A stretch of DNA of 64,000 bases from Candidatus Nomurabacteria bacterium (GTDB lineage Bacteria > Patescibacteriota > Minisyncoccia > Phycocordibacterales > SBAW01): assembly GCA_943356495.1 (NCBI GenBank), contig CALRFF010000002.1:165875-229874 (forward strand), in the 5' to 3' direction. Position numbers and translations under genes: made by a program. The notes under the pieces were generated by a model. That model worked only from the letters and a program-made list of their open reading frames with translations, ran no database searches and was not told where the DNA came from. Each line of letters begins with the position of its first letter. Positions within the stretch are counted from its first letter, which is position 1. Of this stretch, positions 5,271-18,751 are shown one piece after another.

Positions 5271-5573
5271 TTATTACTGCCACACGGCGGTTTTTTATTC
5301 GCCCGGACAGCGACTGGGGTGTAGGAGGCTTGCACGGTAGGGACAGTCGGTCATTGAAAATTGAATAAGAAGAAATTGTAAGAATTGATCACACCAAAGA
5401 CCTTTGCCGTACAAGCGGCGAAGGCAAGCAAGCAAAAGTATCTTCTTAAAAAGCTTTAGGAGAGTTTGAGAGAAGAAAACCAAGAGAAACCTGCCAGCCT
5501 AGCGGCTGGTTACATTTCTCTTGTTCCGTTCATCGAGTCTAGGGAGCGAGATTAAAACCTCGTTCTTATATTC

Positions 5574-7030
<1,457 letters not shown>

Positions 7031-7924: not shown

Positions 7925-7997
7925 GCGCGCTTAGCTCAGTTGGTAGAGCATTCGACTGATACTCGAAAGGTCCTAGGTTCGATCCCTAGAGCGCGCA
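7925..7997 (+). tRNA. tRNA-Ile (anticodon GAU)
   Basis: Cloverleaf folded by hand. Acceptor GCGCGCT/AGCGCGC, D-arm AGCTCAGTTGGTAGAGC, anticodon loop CTGATAC, T-arm CTAGGTTCGATCCCTAG. Preceded by a TG-extended -10 (TGCTACTAT at 7903-7911). CCA not encoded. Confidence 0.8.
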
Positions 7998-8032
7998 CCC
8001 GTCAGATCAGAAAAAGTATTCGTGTATTGAGT

Positions 8033-8114
8033 GGGCATGTGGCGGAACTGGTATACGCGTACGTCTCAGAAGCGTATCCCGTAAGGGTTGGGAGTTCGAG
8101 TCTCCCCATGCCCA
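8033..8114 (+). tRNA. tRNA-Leu (anticodon CAG), long variable arm
   Basis: Acceptor GGGCATG/CATGCCC, anticodon stem TACGT/GCGTA with loop CTCAGAA, variable stem-loop CCCGTAAGGG, T-arm GGGAGTTCGAGTCTCCC. Confidence 0.75.
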
Positions 8115-8204
8115 CTCAGTGCAGGAACCGGTAGTGTCCCCATACTCGTTTTTGTAGTTTTAATCGGGCGTATACTTATAGCTAGTTATTACTAGTGGTC
8201 TTTT

Positions 8205-8813
8205 TTGTATATGAACAAAAAAACTAGAAGCCGTTTTATTGGTCTCGCGGTTATTGTCGGTTTTGCGTTGGGGTTGTGGTGGTTTATAGCGGTGGCGCCG
8301 AATATGGGCATGCCTACCGCGCAAACCGCAACAACTACGCCTGTAGTGCGTAATACCACTGCTTCGGCACCTAAGCCGGCGGGTGGCACCGATATTGTGT
8401 CCGTACTTGGGGGTATTACTAACGCAGGTACTTTTGCCTCGTACCTACGCACAACCGGCGTTGTTAAAACACTTACCGGAGCGGGCCCCTATACGGTGTT
8501 TGCGCCGACTGACTCGTCGTTTGCCCTGCTCGCTAAAGGCAGTATTAGCGGGCTCGGCGCCTTGGCGCAAAAGCGTCTTGTCGAATATCACGTAGTCTCC
8601 GGCAAATTACTCGATGCTGATGCGGTGTACAGCGGCATTTACTACGCTCTCTCGCGCGACGCACTTAACTTCTCGGTGCCGATTAACAGCGGCAAGGTCT
8701 ATATAAACAGCGCTACTGTTGTGGGGCAATACAAAGCCAGCAACGGCATCGTCTACATGATTTCCTCAGTCCTGTTCCCTCCGACCGCAAGTGTTACACC
8801 GACGCCGCACTAA
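8205..8813 (+). CDS. Fasciclin (FAS1) domain-containing membrane-anchored protein
   Basis: N-terminal TM helix, Thr-rich linker, then FAS1 motifs (GPYTVFAPTDSAF ... SNGIVYMISSVLFPP). Confidence 0.75.
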   Translation: MYMNKKTRSRFIGLAVIVGFALGLWWFIAVAPNMGMPTAQTATTTPVVRNTTASAPKPAGGTDIVSVLGGITNAGTFASYLRTTGVVKTLTGAGPYTVFAPTDSSFALLAKGSISGLGALAQKRLVEYHVVSGKLLDADAVYSGIYYALSRDALNFSVPINSGKVYINSATVVGQYKASNGIVYMISSVLFPPTASVTPTPH

Positions 8814-9231: not shown

Positions 9232-9870
9232 ATGGACTCTAACAATACGTGGGGCTGGGTCGTCGGTGTCATTATTGTGCTGCTCGTCATACTGGGCCTT
9301 TGGTGGCTTGTAAGCGCCAACCCTGCTACCGACAATAACGGCATAGCGACTACCACTCCGCAGACGGCTACCACCACTAACACCGGCACCAACCCGGCGC
9401 CGGTCGTTTCAGAGACGCGCACTTCATCGACCGTCGCGGCAATCGCCGCAAGTCTCACCGGCTCAAGCAACTTCGAGGCACTTCTCGTCTCGACCGGCGT
9501 TGCCGCCACCCTTGCAGGCAAGGGTCCGTACACGCTCTTTATCCCGACCGACTCTGCTTACGCGAGCCTTACCCCCGGCACCCTTAGTCAGGCGACTGCC
9601 GCGCAAAAGAAGCGCATCGCACAATACGCGGTCGTCTCGGGCAAGGCGCTCGACATCGACGCGGTTAGCAGCGGCACCTACGCGGCGCTCTCCAAAGACA
9701 TGCTCAACTTTCAGGTCAACCTGCAAAAAAGCACGGTGATGGTTAACAGCGGTACCGCTATCCGCCAGTACAAGGCAAGCAACGGCATTGTCTACGTCAT
9801 CAACGCGGTGCTCGTGCCGCCGCAAACGGGCGCAACCACCACCGGCTCCACCGGCACCCCGCACCCTTAA
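9232..9870 (+). CDS. Fasciclin (FAS1) domain-containing membrane-anchored protein (paralog of 8205-8813)
   Basis: Same architecture as its neighbour (GPYTLFIPTDSAYASL ... SNGIVYVINAVLVPP). Confidence 0.75.
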   Translation: MDSNNTWGWVVGVIIVLLVILGLWWLVSANPATDNNGIATTTPQTATTTNTGTNPAPVVSETRTSSTVAAIAASLTGSSNFEALLVSTGVAATLAGKGPYTLFIPTDSAYASLTPGTLSQATAAQKKRIAQYAVVSGKALDIDAVSSGTYAALSKDMLNFQVNLQKSTVMVNSGTAIRQYKASNGIVYVINAVLVPPQTGATTTGSTGTPHP

Positions 9871-10544
9871 GCCAACTCTTTAAGCGCTCGAATATCGTTG
9901 CTCCAACTCTCCCCGCTCCACCACTGGAGTGGGGAGAAGTTCGTTTTATAGAGCGCTTTCTCTCCGTATACGGTGCCAAGATAGTAATACTCCAGTCCGC
10001 GGTCTTTGGCGCCGCGGATAGCATCAAGCATGAGCCAAAGGCCAAGTGACTGTCGTGCATACGCTAGGTCATAAAAAGAAAACCAGTAATGCGCCATCTT
10101 ATCCTCTGCAACCTCTAGTACATAGGCAACCGTGCTACTGGAACTACTACGATATATCGTAGTAGTTGTGACACTTTTAAATACTTGTGCAAGACGCTCG
10201 CGCGGCATGGCGCGCTCACCGTGCTTTTGCGCAAAATAGGTTAAGCAAAAATCAACGGCGTCTTCCTTAGGTGGGCCGGACAATACCTCTTTGGTAAATT
10301 GCCCGTCAAACTTTTTAGCGATGCGACGATTTTCACTGGTTGGTTCAAATTTTGACAATACTACTCGGGCGCTCCGTGCAGAATAAAAAATATTATCGAC
10401 GCCAACAGCGCCGGAGTAGGGAAGATAGCCCCGCTCATATAATGATTCTAAAGAATCATCCCGTTCGCGCTCGCACCACATAGTCTCCGGTCGGGCTACG
10501 TAGATATCAAAGTCTTGCCGCGGTACCGCTGATAGTATTTTCAT
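9867..10544 (-). CDS. Putative arginyl/leucyl-tRNA--protein transferase-like (Ate/Bpt family) protein
   Basis: ARVVLSKFEPTSENRRIAKK matches the conserved R-x-x-F-x-x-S-x-x-RR segment of ATE_N. C-terminal YYLGTVYGEKALYK resembles ATE_C. Assignment from memory of family motifs. Confidence 0.4.
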   Translation of the reverse strand: MKILSAVPRQDFDIYVARPETMWCERERDDSLESLYERGYLPYSGAVGVDNIFYSARSARVVLSKFEPTSENRRIAKKFDGQFTKEVLSGPPKEDAVDFCLTYFAQKHGERAMPRERLAQVFKSVTTTTIYRSSSSSTVAYVLEVAEDKMAHYWFSFYDLAYARQSLGLWLMLDAIRGAKDRGLEYYYLGTVYGEKALYKTNFSPLQWWSGESWSNDIRALKELA

Positions 10545-11996: not shown

Positions 11997-12860
11997 TTAG
12001 TGGCGCACAACCGCGACGAGGTACCTGCCGCCGCCGTTGCGGGTGGTCGGCAGCTCATCGCTGAGGTAGGCGTGCTCGAGCGAGATATTCTGCTCGGGCA
12101 CCCCGTGCTGCATGAACTGGAGTTTGGCGATGGTGGGGATGTCGAGCCAGACATCCTCAACTGACTTTTGCATCCCGCCCACGAGGCCGAGCGTCTCAAG
12201 GTGTGGGACCACGAGCCTGTTGTACACGTGATGCTTTTCGTCATCAAACCGGTGAACGAAGTTCTCCGGCTTGATCGAGTAGAGCACCCATGCCCGTATA
12301 TTACTCAGCACCGGCTCGCTGCCCTCGAATTCAAGAAACGCCTTAACGATGTTATCAACGACGCTTTCGAACGGCCTTGCATCGGGTTCGCCCAGCACGC
12401 GCTTACGATTGATAACGCAGTCGCGCCCCGCGTGAGCAAAGATAACGTAATCGCCGAGCACGGCGACGATGACGCTGCATCCGCTGGCACTGAAGATGCC
12501 GGCATCGCCCCTTTGCCGCAAAAACGTGCCGTCCGCCGGCATGTTGTTGTTACGGAACATCAACATGCCGGGCTCGAGCAGGAACACCTTGGAGAGTTCG
12601 ACAGGCTTGATGATCACCCCGTTGAAGTTCACCGGGTACGGTGCATAGGCGCGGTTGGCGCCCAAGTGCCGCATGGCGCTGCGTAGGCGTGCCGTAAGCA
12701 GGGGATGTTTACGGGCATCCTCCGGCTCTTTGAGCGGCCCGAGTGACAGTTCGTTGCCCGGGCCTTGAAAGCACGCCGCACTAAAGCGGACGCGCTTTGA
12801 CTCAAACGTATTGAAGACGAGCGGCACCAACGGCGCCGTTTCGTGGGTCATGGCGTCCAT
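11997..12860 (-). CDS. Hypothetical protein, possibly YfiH/PgeF (DUF152) family
   Basis: Start supported by a strong SD (AAGGAGG, 5-nt spacer) upstream of MDAMTHET. SGCSVIVAVLGDYVIFAHAGRD loosely resembles the TADCxP...aHAGWRG core. Confidence 0.3.
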   Translation of the reverse strand: MDAMTHETAPLVPLVFNTFESKRVRFSAACFQGPGNELSLGPLKEPEDARKHPLLTARLRSAMRHLGANRAYAPYPVNFNGVIIKPVELSKVFLLEPGMLMFRNNNMPADGTFLRQRGDAGIFSASGCSVIVAVLGDYVIFAHAGRDCVINRKRVLGEPDARPFESVVDNIVKAFLEFEGSEPVLSNIRAWVLYSIKPENFVHRFDDEKHHVYNRLVVPHLETLGLVGGMQKSVEDVWLDIPTIAKLQFMQHGVPEQNISLEHAYLSDELPTTRNGGGRYLVAVVRH

Positions 12861-13668: not shown

Positions 13669-13920
13669 ATGTCTAAAGAGATGACCATTATTGTCCTCGG
13701 TCTCTTTGTGGTCGTGGTGCCGTACCTCGGCATCCCCGGTGAGTGGCGCGTTATCTTACTGGTACTTTCCGGTCTTGGGCTCGCGGTCACCGGATTTCTC
13801 CTGCGCGGCGAGGCGCTTGCTCGCGGCGGACGCGCACATGCGCACAACTCTTTTGTCGAAAGCGAGCACACTCACTCTACACATGAGCATACCCACGAGG
13901 GCATCACGTCACTCAACTAA
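13669..13920 (+). CDS. Hypothetical small membrane protein (2 TM, His-rich C-terminus)
   Basis: Two hydrophobic helices then HAHNSFVESEHTHSTHEHTHEG. Overlaps the start of the next ORF in another frame, so only one of the two N-terminal models may be right. Confidence 0.3.
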   Translation: MSKEMTIIVLGLFVVVVPYLGIPGEWRVILLVLSGLGLAVTGFLLRGEALARGGRAHAHNSFVESEHTHSTHEHTHEGITSLN

Positions 13921-14995
13921 GCTTCTGTACGCGCTCCTTGCGTGTGTAGGCATCGGCGTACTTTGCGGCGTCTTTTTTTATTTGCCGAAAGTCGGTGCCG
14001 TATCCTACGGCTCCGGGTCGGCCACGCAAACAAAAAAACCGCCGAAGGTAGTGCCGCTTAATACGCTCGAGTACGACACGCGGCTGCTGGCACTTGCACA
14101 TGTGGCAACTTCAAGCCCGTGGCACGCCGCTTTTTTGCAGGGTACCACCAGCGCCTCAACCACCGAGCCCAAGCCCCTGTGGCCCGTGCGCAAAGCCTAC
14201 CCCAACGTCGGCGCGCTACTGCCGTTTAACCGTATTGTCGCGTACTACGGCAACTTTTACTCCAAACAAATGGGCGTGCTCGGCGAGTATCCGGAGGAGG
14301 TAGTGCTGCAAAAACTGCAGGCAGAAGTAGACGCGTGGGAGGCCGCTGATCCCACCACGCCGGTTGTGCCGGCTATCGAGTATATCGATGTCACCGCGCA
14401 GGGCAGCGCCGGTAAAGACGGCAAGTATCGCTTGCGCATGCCTGATACGCAAATAGACAAAGCTATCGCGATGGCCGCAACAATAAACGCCATTGTCATT
14501 CTCGACATCCAAGTCGGACTTTCCTCGGTCGAGGAGGAACTGCCGCTCTTAAAAGACTATCTTGCGCTGCCGCAGGTGCATTTGGCCATAGACCCGGAGT
14601 TTGATATGCAGGGCAACACGCCGCCCGGGCGTGTTATAGGCACCACCGACGCCGCGACCATCAACAATGCCGCGCAATACTTGGCCGCGTTGGTACGCGA
14701 GCATAACTTGCCGCCGAAGATTCTCCTCCTGCACCGTTTTACCGAAGATATGATTACGGGCTACAAGCAGATAACACCCTTGCCGGAGGTGCAGATAATC
14801 GTGCAGATGGACGGTTGGGGCTCGCCGCAACGCAAAATAGGCACCTACCGCCACGTGATATATCCCGAGCCGGTGCAGTTTACGGGGCTAAAAATATTTT
14901 ACAAAAACGACCTTAAAGAAATCCCGAGCCGCCTCTTAACGATGCAAGAAGTGCTCAACCTTACTCCTGCACCGAGCTTTATCCAGTATCAATAA
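13883..14995 (+). CDS. Hypothetical membrane-anchored/exported protein (possible polysaccharide-active hydrolase-like fold)
   Basis: N-terminal TM/signal anchor (LLYALLACVGIGVLCGVFFYL) after ATG 13883. An upstream in-frame ATG at about 13838 is also possible. No confident domain assignment. Confidence 0.4.
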   Translation: MSIPTRASRHSTKLLYALLACVGIGVLCGVFFYLPKVGAVSYGSGSATQTKKPPKVVPLNTLEYDTRLLALAHVATSSPWHAAFLQGTTSASTTEPKPLWPVRKAYPNVGALLPFNRIVAYYGNFYSKQMGVLGEYPEEVVLQKLQAEVDAWEAADPTTPVVPAIEYIDVTAQGSAGKDGKYRLRMPDTQIDKAIAMAATINAIVILDIQVGLSSVEEELPLLKDYLALPQVHLAIDPEFDMQGNTPPGRVIGTTDAATINNAAQYLAALVREHNLPPKILLLHRFTEDMITGYKQITPLPEVQIIVQMDGWGSPQRKIGTYRHVIYPEPVQFTGLKIFYKNDLKEIPSRLLTMQEVLNLTPAPSFIQYQ

Positions 14996-15007: not shown

Positions 15008-15016
15008 TTGCTATAA
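15008..15016 (+). promoter_or_regulatory. TG-extended -10 element (TGCTATAAT) 11 nt upstream of GTG 15027
   Basis: Read directly from the sequence. The spacing implies a leaderless or near-leaderless transcript. Confidence 0.35.
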
Positions 15017-15026
15017 TTAACGGCAA

Positions 15027-16775
15027 GTGGAAGATCCTAATCAAATAACGTTTTTTGCGCAGACCAACTCGCGCGGGAGCGCTATGCCGTTCGGTATTAA
15101 GCGCAAGGACCGCGCCCGCCACATGTACGTCATCGGCAAAACGGGCATGGGCAAAAGCACCCTGCTGGAGAACATGGCCATACAGGACATCCGCAACGGC
15201 GAAGGTATTGCTTTTATCGACCCGCACGGCAGCACAGCAGACCGCATTATGGAGTATGTGCCGGCGCACCGCGTTAAAGACGTAGTGTACTTTGCGCCGT
15301 TTGACATGGAGCATCCGGTGGCCTTTAACGTGATGGAAGACGTCGGCTACGACAAGCGCCACTTGGTGGTCTCCGGCCTGCTCTCCGCGTTTCGCAAAAT
15401 CTGGGTAGACGCATGGAGCGCCCGCATGGAGTACATCCTTTCGAACACACTCCTTGCGCTTTTGGAGTACGAAGGCGCGACACTACTTGATGTTAACCGC
15501 ATGCTTATCAACAAAGCCTTCCGCAAAAAGGTAGTGGAAAATGTTAAAGACCCGATAGTAAAAAGTTTTTGGGTGGACGAGTTTGCCAACTACACCGACC
15601 GCTATACACAGGACGCGACGCCCGCCATACAAAACAAGGTCGGGCAATTTACCTCGAACCCTCTTATCCGCAACATCGTGGGGCAGCCCAAGTCGTCTTT
15701 TGACATACGCAAGTTGATGGACGAAAAGAAGATTCTTATCATGAACCTTTCCAAAGGCCGCGTGGGTGAGGTCAACGCGACACTCCTAGGCTCGATGCTG
15801 GTAACCAAAATTTATTTGGCGGCGATGTCTCGCGCCGATGTATCGCTGGAGGTAATGAACACGCTTCCGAACTTTTACTTTTATGTAGACGAGTTCCAAA
15901 ACTTTGCCAACGAAAGTTTTGCCGACATACTTTCCGAGGCGCGCAAATACAAACTCAACCTGCTTATTGCCCACCAGTACGTCGAGCAAATGGAGGAAGA
16001 GGTACGCGACGCGGTCTTCGGCAACGTGGGCACGACGGTGGCGTTTCGTGTCGGGCCGTTTGATGCCGAGGTGTTGGAAACAATTTTCAACCCGCAGTTT
16101 ACCGCGACCGATTTGGTTAATTTAGGTTTCGCCCAAATTTACTTAACGCTCATGATAGACGGTGTCGGCTCGCCACCTTTTAGCGCTACAACCTTACCTC
16201 CGTTTGACCTGCCGCCGGAGCGTTTTGTCGATCGCGTGCTCGAGTCCTCGCGCTCAACCTACGGTAAGCCGCGCGCCCAGGTAGAGCGTGATATAGACGA
16301 GTGGCACAAGGTAGACCCTGTCGTGCCCGACTTGTCTAAACCTAAAAAATCGTACACCGCTACTGTGCGCGCCACCGCGCCGCGCGTACAAACCGTACCC
16401 GTGCCGGTTGCCCCCGCACATCCCGTGCATCACCCGACGCCGGAATTGAAGAGGGAAGTAGAAATACTGCACAAAGCCGCCGCCGCTCCCGCAGTGCCCC
16501 GTAGCGAAGAGCCCCGCGGCCATAGCTCTTCGGGCGAGGCCCGCAGAACTCCGGCCCCGGCACCTCAACAGCAGCCGCAAAAGCCGCCGCTCGGAGGGGC
16601 TAAAAGTTTGCGCGAAGCGTTGGCGATGGCTACCGGTAAAAAAGCCGAGATACACGCCCCCGACCTTAAGCGCACGCTCGGTAAGGTAGCGCCCGAGGCA
16701 CATAAAACACCCGAGCTGAGCCAAGAAAAAATCCGCGAGATGCTCGCGGTAGAGCCGTTTGATGACGCTGCGTAA
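15027..16775 (+). CDS. TraD/VirD4-like (type IV coupling protein family) P-loop ATPase without an N-terminal TM anchor; Pro-rich disordered C-terminus
   Basis: Walker A YVIGKTGMGKST, hydrophobic Walker-B-like YFYVDEFQNF, and ARKYKLNLLIAHQYVEQM typical of the TrwB/TraD C-terminal motor region. Start is either GTG 15027 or ATG 15084. Confidence 0.55.
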   Translation: MEDPNQITFFAQTNSRGSAMPFGIKRKDRARHMYVIGKTGMGKSTLLENMAIQDIRNGEGIAFIDPHGSTADRIMEYVPAHRVKDVVYFAPFDMEHPVAFNVMEDVGYDKRHLVVSGLLSAFRKIWVDAWSARMEYILSNTLLALLEYEGATLLDVNRMLINKAFRKKVVENVKDPIVKSFWVDEFANYTDRYTQDATPAIQNKVGQFTSNPLIRNIVGQPKSSFDIRKLMDEKKILIMNLSKGRVGEVNATLLGSMLVTKIYLAAMSRADVSLEVMNTLPNFYFYVDEFQNFANESFADILSEARKYKLNLLIAHQYVEQMEEEVRDAVFGNVGTTVAFRVGPFDAEVLETIFNPQFTATDLVNLGFAQIYLTLMIDGVGSPPFSATTLPPFDLPPERFVDRVLESSRSTYGKPRAQVERDIDEWHKVDPVVPDLSKPKKSYTATVRATAPRVQTVPVPVAPAHPVHHPTPELKREVEILHKAAAAPAVPRSEEPRGHSSSGEARRTPAPAPQQQPQKPPLGGAKSLREALAMATGKKAEIHAPDLKRTLGKVAPEAHKTPELSQEKIREMLAVEPFDDAA

Positions 16776-17895
16776 ACATTTTTTACTTATATTCTTTTTT
16801 CTTTTACTCCTGCCTGCGCAGGCGCTTGCCGTTGATTTGGTAAATATTAATACCGCCGACTCGGCGACCCTGCAGACATTAAACGGCATTGGCCCCTCTA
16901 AAGCGCAGGCGATTATCGACTACCGTACGCAATACGGCCTGTTTGCGGCAATAGAGGATATCCAAAACGTCAGCGGCATAGGCACGGCCACATACAACGG
17001 CATTAAAGACTTTATTACGGTAAGCGCCGCCGTGCAGAACCAGCCTCAAACTCAAACCCAAACGCAGACCTCCACCCAAACGCAAGTACAAATAACCGGC
17101 AGTAATTCGCAACCGGCTATCGCCGCCTATATCACCACCGGCGCTAGTGCGCTGGCGGGCGCGGGTACGGTGTTTGACGGATCGGCCGTCGGCAGTAAAG
17201 GAGAGCCCCTTATCGCCAATGTGCGGTATATATGGAACTTCGGTGACGGTGTCGTTGCAGAAGGCGCGCACGCGCTGCACACCTATGCGTACCCGGGCAC
17301 GTACGGAGTACAGTTGTCCGTTGCGTACAACTACTCAAGCGCTACGGCACGACTCGACTTGTCCGTTGCTGTTGCGTCGGTCAAGTTGTTTGCCGAGGGC
17401 GACGGGTCGCTTACCGTTGCCAACACTTCAAACGGAGATCTTGATGTAGGGCTGTGGTCTTTGACGCAAGGCAACAACACCCCGTTTAGTATCCCTGCGC
17501 AGACCGTCGTACTTGCCGGCAAGGGTGTGCGCTTTGCGCCTCTTGTCATGGGGTTTGCGGGCGACACTGCCGCACTATTACGTTACCCAAATGGTGCGCT
17601 TGCCGCGAGTGCCACACCCAGTGCGCAGTCGCCGTTGCGCGGACAACAAGTCGAGATTCCGCAAAAACCTGCCACCGCAGCTGCGGTGGCAGCAAAAACG
17701 GCAGCATCAAAAGAACCAACCACAGCACAAGTTGCCGCAGCAGCACAAGCTCTCCCCGCGGCCGAGGGAGTCTTGTGGAGCTATTTAGTGGGGTTGTCGG
17801 CTATCATTGCGGTAGGGGCCGTTGGGGCCTACTATGCTCATAGGCCGTCAGGACCTGAAACTAGGGCCTTGGCCGAGGAGTTTGAGATTGAATAG
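16759..17895 (+). CDS. ComEA-like helix-hairpin-helix DNA-binding protein fused to a PKD domain with a C-terminal TM anchor
   Basis: Signal peptide, then INTADSATLQTLNGIGPSKAQAIIDYR (ComEA HhH), a TQ-repeat linker, a PKD-like IWNFGDGVVAEGAHALHTYAYPGTYGVQLSVAYN, and a C-terminal hydrophobic helix. Confidence 0.6.
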   Translation: MMTLRKHFLLIFFFLLLLPAQALAVDLVNINTADSATLQTLNGIGPSKAQAIIDYRTQYGLFAAIEDIQNVSGIGTATYNGIKDFITVSAAVQNQPQTQTQTQTSTQTQVQITGSNSQPAIAAYITTGASALAGAGTVFDGSAVGSKGEPLIANVRYIWNFGDGVVAEGAHALHTYAYPGTYGVQLSVAYNYSSATARLDLSVAVASVKLFAEGDGSLTVANTSNGDLDVGLWSLTQGNNTPFSIPAQTVVLAGKGVRFAPLVMGFAGDTAALLRYPNGALAASATPSAQSPLRGQQVEIPQKPATAAAVAAKTAASKEPTTAQVAAAAQALPAAEGVLWSYLVGLSAIIAVGAVGAYYAHRPSGPETRALAEEFEIE

Positions 17896-17899
17896 CCAT

Positions 17900-18751
17900 A
17901 TGGATAAGAAAACTATACTGGTCACCGGCGGCGCCGGATTTATCGGCTCGCACTTGTGTGAGCGTCTTGTCGCGCAAGGGCATAGGGTTATTTCACTTGA
18001 TAATTACTTCGCCGGCTCAAAAGACAATCATGTCGCGGGAGTAGAGTATCGTACGGGCCACACCAAAGACATCGAAACACTGGTCCCCGAGACACCGGAT
18101 GTGGTGTACCACTTAGGCGAGTACTCGCGCGTCGAAATTTCTTTAGAGGAGCCGGCGCTGGTGTGGGACTTAAACAAAGACGGCACGTTCGGCGTAGCGG
18201 AGTTTTGGCGCAAAAAAAAGTGCAAGCTGGTGTACGCGGGCTCAAGCACCAAGTTTGGCGACGGCGGGCTGGGGCGCGTACAAAGCCCTTACGCGTGGAC
18301 CAAAGCAAGCAACACCGAGTTGGTGCAGAATTACGGCCGGTGGTACTCCTTGCCGTACGCTATTACGTACTTTTATAACGTGTACGGTCCGCGCGAGCGC
18401 GCGGGCAAGTACGGTACGGTGATCGAGATATTTAGACAAAAAAAGATGCACGGCGAGCCACTGACCGTGGTTGCTCCGGGTACACAAAAGCGCAATTACA
18501 CGCATGTCGGCGATATTGTGGAAGGATTGCTGGCGGTGGGAGAGCGCGGCGAAGGCGACGAGTACGGACTCGGCGCCGAAGAGCAGTACTCGGTGCTCGA
18601 TGTGGCGCGGATGTTCGGCGGGGAAGTGACGATGCTGCCCGAGCGCGCCGGCAACCGTATGGACGCGACGCTCGATACCACCAAGTCGCAAGCGATAGGG
18701 TGGAGGCCTACACACAAGCTTGCAGATTACATACAAGCCGCTATTGCATGA
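17900..18751 (+). CDS. NAD-dependent nucleotide-sugar epimerase/dehydratase (UDP-glucuronate decarboxylase/UDP-glucose 4-epimerase-like)
   Basis: ILVTGGAGFIGSHLCERL Rossmann motif, YxxxK region. Start at MDKK. Confidence 0.75.
   Translation: MDKKTILVTGGAGFIGSHLCERLVAQGHRVISLDNYFAGSKDNHVAGVEYRTGHTKDIETLVPETPDVVYHLGEYSRVEISLEEPALVWDLNKDGTFGVAEFWRKKKCKLVYAGSSTKFGDGGLGRVQSPYAWTKASNTELVQNYGRWYSLPYAITYFYNVYGPRERAGKYGTVIEIFRQKKMHGEPLTVVAPGTQKRNYTHVGDIVEGLLAVGERGEGDEYGLGAEEQYSVLDVARMFGGEVTMLPERAGNRMDATLDTTKSQAIGWRPTHKLADYIQAAIA

Follow-up and report, generated by a model that had tools for sequence, protein, structure and literature searches.

What does an ATPase of the coupling-protein type do when no secretion genes surround it and the gene that overlaps it encodes a surface protein with a DNA-binding head? 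This question is raised by two genes at positions 15027 to 17895 of a 64,000-nucleotide stretch (the window, positions 165,875 to 229,874 of contig CALRFF010000002.1, assembly GCA_943356495.1) from a Candidatus Nomurabacteria bacterium. The window is chromosomal DNA of Patescibacteria (candidate phyla radiation, CPR), class Paceibacteria. The first gene encodes a soluble relative of type IV coupling proteins (T4CPs), and the second a membrane-anchored stalk protein, called here the partner. There is a good probability that the two form a functional pair, and the favoured explanation, to which a probability of about 40% is given, is a split T4CP-like complex handling DNA at the cell envelope.

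An ATPase of the coupling-protein family lacking its anchor

The features of the ATPase gene are the following:

15027-16775, + strand: P-loop ATPase of 582 aa, GTG start
15135-15161, + strand: Walker A GKTGMGKST (aa 37-45), invariant in 59 homologues and aligned with the P-loop of TrwB
15357-15722, + strand: all-alpha domain within the nucleotide-binding domain (aa ~111-232), from the AlphaFold2 (AF2) model
15873-15896, + strand: Walker B FYFYVDEF (aa 283-290), with D288 and E289 invariant in the 59 homologues; aligned with LWLFIDEL of TrwB
15939-15992, + strand: motor motif ARKYKLNLLIAHQYVEQM (aa 305-322), with R306, K307, H316 and Q317 invariant; aligned with GRKAGLRVVAGLQSTSQL of TrwB
16314-16772, + strand: Pro-rich C-terminal extension of ~150 aa (15% Pro), mostly disordered (low predicted local distance difference test score, pLDDT)

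Within the FtsK-HerA superfamily, the ATPase falls in the TrwB/VirD4 branch. Among the Pfam models, TrwB_AAD_bind (PF10412) matched residues 27-342 with 33.7 bits (cut-off 20.5), and TraG-D_C (PF12696; 28.1 bits, cut-off 22) and DUF87 (25.6 bits, cut-off 23.2) were also above their cut-offs, while T4SS-DNA_transf (PF02534) was borderline (20.1 bits, cut-off 20.1). TrwB was the sole match by sequence in the PDB. The NCBIfam TraD and CD1115 VirD4-like models gave 44.5 bits, far under their cut-offs of 366 and 250. FtsK_SpoIIIE (PF01580) reached 12.9 bits against a cut-off of 24, over the P-loop only, and the HerA-specific models also stayed below cut-off. Concerning the fold, Foldseek ranked DotL first (4.6e-8), then TrwB (~1e-7), Cag-beta (1e-6) and HerA. 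The AF2 model behind this search is moderate (pLDDT 62.7; predicted template modelling score, pTM, 0.61), probably because the rows of its alignment were all at least ~72% identical, and it was used only to rank fold families. An initial reading of the locus made from its letters alone (the sequence-only reading) had proposed profile searches and structure prediction as a check, and these place the ATPase in the T4CP family and not among the HerA ATPases of defence systems or the KAP NTPases.

Like TrwB (R388), VirD4, DotL and Cag-beta, the protein shows an inserted all-alpha domain, which in the model consists of eight helices between strands 86-89 and 236-240, as well as matching Walker and motor motifs. 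Unlike these canonical T4CPs, to which it is ~18% identical, it has no N-terminal transmembrane (TM) domain, carries a long Pro-rich C-terminal extension and stands without a relaxosome or type IV secretion system (T4SS) context in the 64-kb window. Judging by its conserved residues, the enzyme is predicted to be catalytically intact. In the homologue consensus, the C-terminal extension contains conserved short blocks (GAKSLREALA, APDLK and LR.ML), and its conservation is lost in more distant loci.

The public gene call places the start at ATG 15084 (563 aa), which has a GGGAG Shine-Dalgarno-like site. This start was rejected in favour of GTG 15027 because 19 upstream residues (EDPNxITYFAxTNSRG) are kept in the homologues and in almost every related locus. 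With Walker A starting at residue 37 and a TAA stop in frame just before the GTG (15018-15020), an N-terminal TM domain would not fit; furthermore, hydropathy analysis detected no TM segment in relatives of the soluble form, in which Walker A is also near residue 37. The sequence-only reading had described an ATPase of 582 aa with a GTG start, a Walker A, a motor motif, a Pro-rich tail and no N-terminal anchor, and this description was borne out by the reading frame and its translation, by the conservation of the upstream residues and by the lack of a hydrophobic segment.

More than 8,000 close homologues of the ATPase were found, and in a library of representatives clustered at 50% identity the matching representatives numbered 21,569 (5,862 at E<=1e-30). 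Relatives of the ATPase carry labels such as Adlerbacteria, Kaiserbacteria, Nomurabacteria and Paceibacterota, and the databases name them 'type IV secretion system DNA-binding domain-containing protein'. The family presents two architectures, the soluble form found here and a long form, whose members are paralogues 52% identical over the motor and extended at the N-terminus by ~400 aa that include one or two TM helices. Proteins of the long form (P0183, P0186, P0187, P0204, P0212, P0216 and P0228) share in this extension a conserved block, …EKGP..AEQMFASLHG…ISFEI…IRFY…EGQ.YAQYP.VEI, unmatched by any Pfam model. A Rosetta-stone fusion in the long-form paralogues was considered and found no support, as the extension has no Pfam, helix-hairpin-helix (HhH), PKD or lamin-tail domain (LTD) match. 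A metagenome scan with the distant homologue P0246 returned four short loci and was uninformative.

The stalk partner and its conserved tail

The partner gene encodes the following elements:

16762-17895, + strand: partner gene, type-I membrane stalk protein of 377 aa (alternative TTG start at 16759, 378 aa)
16762-16830, + strand: Sec-type signal peptide (aa 1-23, ...AQALA/VD), with a helix at aa 4-15 in the model and a predicted cleavage site
16837-17025, + strand: ComEA-type HhH head (aa 26-88), HHH_3 5e-19, pLDDT > 95
17026-17121, + strand: disordered TQ-repeat linker (aa 89-120), pLDDT < 50 at aa 91-106
17122-17370, + strand: PKD Ig-like domain (aa 121-203), PKD 4.7e-11 and PKD_4 1.2e-10, TM-score 0.79 with the ColG PKD
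17380-17619, + strand: second beta-sandwich, divergent and lamin-tail-like (aa 207-286), LTD E=0.037, TM-score 0.52 with the lamin B1 tail 3jt0
17620-17775, + strand: disordered stalk rich in Ala, Pro and Thr (aa 287-338), pLDDT < 50 at aa 295-336
17776-17838, + strand: C-terminal TM helix (aa 339-359), helical in the model with pLDDT ~90
17839-17892, + strand: cytoplasmic tail of 18 aa (aa 360-377), ending ...ETRALAEEFEIE and carrying the conserved terminal motif

The ATPase and partner genes overlap by 17 nt when the TTG start is taken, the value given at first, and by 14 nt from ATG 16762, the start in the public gene calls. The domain order of the sequence-only reading, with a ComEA HhH module, a TQ linker, a PKD domain and a C-terminal anchor, was recovered in full by profiles and by the AF2 model, which is confident in the folded parts of the protein. 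The head scores 72.3 bits with TIGR00426 (ComEA HhH region; cut-off 53.1), and it superimposes on ComEA of G. stearothermophilus (8dss_B) over 62 columns with a root-mean-square deviation of 0.6 Å and 48% identity. The second beta-sandwich is recognised as LTD with E-values of 1e-7 to 3e-5 in the homologues P0359 and P0274, and the C-terminal TM helix appears in nearly all partners by hydropathy scan. Regarding these data, the partner is predicted by the model to be a type-I protein that presents a DNA-binding head at the distal end of a stalk.

Like ComEA of Bacillus and Geobacillus, the partner is predicted to be a membrane-tethered, extracytoplasmic module that binds double-stranded DNA. 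Its topology is nevertheless reversed, with a signal predicted to be cleaved, a distal N-terminal head and a C-terminal anchor; it adds two Ig-like domains and long linkers, and in most orthologues an LTD replaces the head. The full-length ComEA model (TIGR01259) is not reached, with 76.8 bits against a cut-off of 152.35, and, unlike in the ComEA system, no comEC gene is found near the pair in the window.

Although the ectodomains differ among the partners, the motif ET-x(5-6)-(D/E)EF(D/E)IE-COOH closes 33 of 58 partner open reading frames, with HhH and LTD heads alike. More distant relatives show tails such as GYEVVEVKE and GFEVIEDES. Since this is a short, constrained cytoplasmic motif encoded beside a soluble ATPase that is 70% conserved, the tail is best explained as a putative docking site for the ATPase. 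The co-variation of the motif with the C-terminal extension of the ATPase is not clean, as several loci keep the motif with an extension that cannot be aligned. A clade of tail-less partners (loci L041, L045, L055, L056, L061, L075, L078, L080 and L082) carries a recurrent SPW(T/S)LGF-like motif before the TM helix, which could be a sorting signal.

Conservation, promoter and surroundings of the pair

To place the pair among its relatives, 80 loci from GTDB species representatives were fetched, 72 of which had enough downstream sequence for scoring the partner. The motor is ~60-90% identical over these 80 species and ~70% across class Paceibacteria, and the order RsmI - ATPase - partner - epimerase recurs throughout the 80 loci, with a Mur ligase also upstream of RsmI in the neighbourhoods examined. 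The ATPase is inherited vertically, among housekeeping genes whose order is conserved. Directly 3' of it, 58 of the 72 loci encode a homologous partner, mostly overlapping the ATPase or a few nt apart and translationally coupled to it, so the pairing whose conservation had been proposed as a check is kept in 58 of 72 species. The epimerase follows within ~0-170 nt of the partner, or of the ATPase itself, in most related loci; where no partner is found, it comes directly after the ATPase in 9 of 14 loci.

The heads of the 58 partners are HhH in 12 and LTD in the same position in 44, with neither detected in the remaining 2. Among the 44 LTD-headed partners, 13 of the LTD-Cterm type and 4 LTD-only ones have no PKD domain. 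Over the PKD and C-terminal regions, some homologues share 52-54% identity with the window partner and yet bear an N-terminal LTD in place of the HhH, so the swap is recent. The LTD head of the partner at locus L019 matches the LTD region of the extracellular nuclease ExeM (6e-7). More distant relatives (motor 60-71% identical) show the order Mur ligase - RsmI - small ORF (open reading frame) - DUF4015 - ATPase - partner (HhH or LTD) - epimerase or glycosyltransferase, and one relative at 46% identity has no partner.

Concerning transcription, the pair is preceded by a promoter element and followed by the first gene of a glycan cluster:

15009-15017, + strand: extended -10 element TGCTATAAT, ending 9 nt before the GTG start
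17888-18751, + strand: NAD-dependent sugar epimerase/dehydratase, overlapping the partner stop by 8 nt, first gene of the glycan cluster

Of 76 related loci surveyed, 73 have a hexamer resembling a -10 box that stops 6-11 nt (mode 7) short of the ATPase start codon, compared with a background of 2.4% at random positions; 45 of these 73 hexamers are TGn-extended. This arrangement supports a putative leaderless ATPase transcript. The idea of a leaderless promoter thus stands as first proposed, with 73 of 76 loci in its favour, while the spacing of 11 nt had to be corrected to 9 nt from the GTG. Over the whole window, a TATAAT/TATACT -10-like box ends 4-12 nt before the start in 8 of 48 genes versus 1.7% at random positions, because of which leaderless-type initiation looks like a trait of the organism and of its genome as a whole. 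Such boxes lie near the starts at, for example, 22708, 26112, 31368, 44110, 52968, 60317 and 63555, and a Shine-Dalgarno motif is missing from most window genes. Moreover, the ATPase looks like the head of a transcription unit. Overlaps of 4-17 nt link the ATPase, the partner, the epimerase and four GT4 glycosyltransferases, the next -10 promoter of this type after the ATPase is found at ~22.7 kb, and the epimerase is probably on the same transcript as the pair.

The gene calls used here, with their precomputed Pfam matches, span the window from ~2.1 kb to its end, and no T4SS, relaxase, ComEC or pilus genes are among them. The earlier statement that relaxase, VirB4 and other T4SS genes are not nearby accordingly extends to the whole 64 kb. 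The upstream order is SecD/SecF, a 16S gene, two fasciclin-domain proteins, an ATE_C protein, a Mur ligase and RsmI; between RsmI and the ATPase lies a 385-aa gene with no Pfam match. About 35 kb of surface-glycan genes follow the pair, and then MurB, SecA, Obg and GatB. The GC content is uniform, with 0.54-0.57 here as in the remainder of the window.

The 16S rRNA gene (5567-7029) is complete and bacterial, and no 23S gene is present in the remaining 57 kb of the window, so the rRNA operon is unlinked. The genes for tRNA-Ile(GAT) and tRNA-Leu(CAG) (7925-8115) are located ~900 nt 3' of the 16S gene. The fasciclin-domain proteins are encoded in tandem (8304-8813 and 9232-9870, + strand) and have N-terminal TM helices and Thr-rich linkers. 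A 287-aa protein with no Pfam match (11997-12860, - strand) adjoins the Mur-ligase gene and an ATE_C/Acetyltransf_6 gene (FemAB-like or aminoacyl-transferase; 9867-10544, - strand), and this block upstream of RsmI is kept in distant relatives too.

The 385-aa protein (13838-14995, + strand) has an N-terminal TM helix and no Pfam or PADLOC match. Its gene is located between RsmI and the ATPase in ~30 of the 80 loci, and it was rejected as a member of the module, being missing from most loci and lacking a Pfam match. BLASTP found no similarity between it and the DUF4015 proteins that hold the same slot in distant relatives. An 83-aa ORF with two hydrophobic segments (13669-13920, + strand), uncalled by the gene callers, overlaps the start of the 385-aa gene, and genes of 73-79 aa occupy its slot after RsmI in L090-L092. 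The glycan cluster (17888-55199) contains many GT4 and GT2 glycosyltransferases, several S-adenosylmethionine-dependent methyltransferases, one carbamoyltransferase, two NeuB-type synthases with CMP-sugar synthetases, a UDP-glucose/GDP-mannose dehydrogenase and a 743-aa Wzy_C/TPR protein.

Possible roles of the pair

If the pair is a split T4CP-like complex, the partner would supply the membrane anchor and an extracellular stalk that binds DNA or another ligand, and its tail would dock the soluble ATPase hexamer onto the membrane, by analogy with TraJ of pIP501. The tip of the stalk in this organism may bind extracellular double-stranded DNA; the motor would work on nucleic acid on the cytoplasmic side of the membrane, together with a channel (ComEC or the chromosomal T4SS) encoded elsewhere. 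Transcription would begin at a leaderless-type promoter, with the two genes of the module at the head of an operon that continues into surface-glycan genes. Patescibacteria do not synthesise nucleotides of their own, and the likely role would be the acquisition of DNA or nucleotides by a bacterium unable to make them. In CPR genomes ComEA is annotated in only 31%, from which an alternative mechanism of DNA binding has been suggested (PMC6744442), and in a saccharibacterium, the one species examined in this respect, comEC mediates transformation and is nonetheless dispensable for growth (PMC10633639).

T4CPs with no TM domain are a recognised subfamily that works with small membrane proteins, as do TraJ and TraI of pIP501 (PMC7434980). 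In both cases a soluble T4CP motor is encoded beside a membrane protein, which in pIP501 is considered to replace the anchor. TraJ and TraI are part of a plasmid tra operon that also encodes a relaxase and a T4SS, whereas the window pair is chromosomal, vertically inherited and unlinked to a T4SS, and its partner is a large type-I stalk with DNA-binding or Ig-like ectodomains. Regarding the LTD-type partners, they share this domain with the nucleases ExeM and NucH but have no nuclease domain; the removal of the LTD from ExeM reduces its nuclease activity in vitro (PMC6085458).

Several findings weigh against a DNA-handling complex. Only 12 of the 58 partners have a recognised DNA-binding head; most of the 58 carry an LTD, a domain widespread among surface proteins in general (PMC6085458). 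In the 14 of 72 loci with no partner at this position, the ATPase is kept and followed by the epimerase or by glycosyltransferases. About 40% of the partners, all from one clade, stop right after the TM helix and have no tail motif. The pair encodes no membrane channel, its only membrane segment being one TM helix, and the moderate ATPase model (pLDDT 62.7) gives structural matches with low TM-scores. In addition, the conserved co-transcription with glycan genes suits an envelope role equally well, and S. epibionticum was reported not to need its T4CP homologue as an essential gene (PMC12102498). From the minimal DNA-capture and translocation module of the sequence-only reading, the conserved pair was therefore retained; its self-sufficiency was given up because there is no channel, and the argument from the HhH head was weakened by its presence in only 12 of 58 partners.

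The ATPase could instead be the coupling protein of a distant chromosomal T4SS, with the partner as membrane adaptor and adhesin in the export of protein or DNA towards a host cell. Chromosomal T4SSs of Patescibacteria are usually encoded near dnaA. The membership of the ATPase in the T4CP family (Pfam, Foldseek) agrees with this, and so do the Ig-like PKD and LTD domains of the stalk, a build typical of adhesins, and the fact that the anchorless T4CP of pIP501 and its membrane protein operate within a T4SS (PMC7434980). A survey by Quinonero-Coronel et al. 2025 bears on both sides (PMC12102498). VirD4-type T4CP homologues were found there in 2,918 of 3,035 Patescibacteria genomes (5,713 genes), and the ATPase of the window most likely belongs to this same gene family of orphan T4CPs. 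VirB4 was present in 2,417 of the 3,035 genomes, and a T4CP far from virB4 is not unusual in the phylum. Against a coupling role, T4CP homologues occur in more genomes than VirB4 (2,918 vs 2,417), only 148 of the 5,713 are near virB4, relaxases are nearly absent (109 in 3,035 genomes), and in S. epibionticum the T4SS genes are essential whereas the T4CP homologue is not; those authors consider that exaptation of the orphan homologues may have occurred. An extracellular head that binds double-stranded DNA would also be unexpected on the adaptor of an exporter, and the window has no T4SS gene. This explanation is rather unlikely.

An envelope function not involving DNA is unlikely as well. Here the ATPase would power the assembly, anchoring or turnover of a surface stalk or glycan, and the HhH head would be a late addition. 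The overlapping genes from the ATPase through the epimerase to four GT4 glycosyltransferases favour it, together with the ATPase-epimerase or ATPase-glycosyltransferase adjacency that persists in loci with no partner, the upstream Mur ligase, the DUF4015 proteins (a domain of putative glycosyl hydrolases) seen in all three of the more distant relatives examined, and a partner made of long Thr/Ala/Pro linkers and generic surface modules (LTD, PKD). However, the partner has its own Sec signal and TM anchor and so needs no dedicated exporter, the order of genes in streamlined genomes is maintained over long stretches regardless of function, and the HhH head is genuinely of the ComEA type. To our knowledge, no ATPase of the FtsK/HerA/T4CP type acts in glycan export or protein glycosylation, which also counts against such a function.

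It is very improbable that the ATPase is left over from a conjugative or mobile element, or that it serves in anti-phage defence as an ATPase of the HerA or MADS type. The strongest single profile match of the ATPase is the PADLOC model mad8 (6e-14, 50 bits), accompanied by weak HerA matches, and HerA structures come after the T4CPs in the fold search. HerA/FtsK translocases, MAD8 of MADS and the archaeal Ced ATPases share the ASCE P-loop superfamily with it, with weak profile and second-tier fold matches, those of the Ced models being limited to the N-terminal P-loop region; unlike FtsK and SpoIIIE, the window ATPase has no TM segments. MADS detection needs MAD6, MAD7 and MAD8, and neither MAD6 and MAD7 nor the obligatory partners of HerA (Sir2, DUF4297 or NurA) stand beside the ATPase. 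The neighbours give no PADLOC match of any kind, and with the conserved synteny this effectively refutes a defence system. Unlike defence islands, the gene is present in nearly the whole phylum, with ~70% identity over the class, and no integrase, relaxase or methyltransferase partner accompanies it. The housekeeping synteny over 80 species and a GC content of 0.54-0.57, equal to the rest of the window, rule out a mobile element.

The split T4CP-like complex can also be stated in a bolder form, as a T4SS-independent machine spread over the class or wider, in which a tail-docked hexameric translocase and HhH or LTD heads that capture nucleic acid would acquire DNA or nucleotides independently of comEC. 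This bolder form is decidedly doubtful.

Concerning novelty, the gene family of the ATPase was already known. What appears to be new is its conserved partner, together with the head swap, the tail motif and the promoter. The available passages of PMC12102498 and the literature searches gave no soluble/long-form split, stalk partner, head swap, tail motif or leaderless promoter; likewise, the searches found no paper on the ATPase-partner pair, and their top-ranked results never joined 'lamin tail' with Patescibacteria terms.

With these findings, the nearly universal orphan T4CP homologues of Patescibacteria gain a functional lead, namely an operon shared with a surface stalk protein across Paceibacteria. 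They also provide a concrete hypothesis, a split, membrane-docked translocase that would be tied to extracellular DNA, with specific residues named for mutation. Furthermore, the exchange between HhH and LTD heads offers a starting point for finding out what lamin-tail domains do in bacteria. If T4SS-independent capture of nucleic acids is true, these domains would have a nucleic-acid-binding role in bacteria; if the module serves envelope biogenesis, it would mean a new job for the T4CP-type ATPase family.

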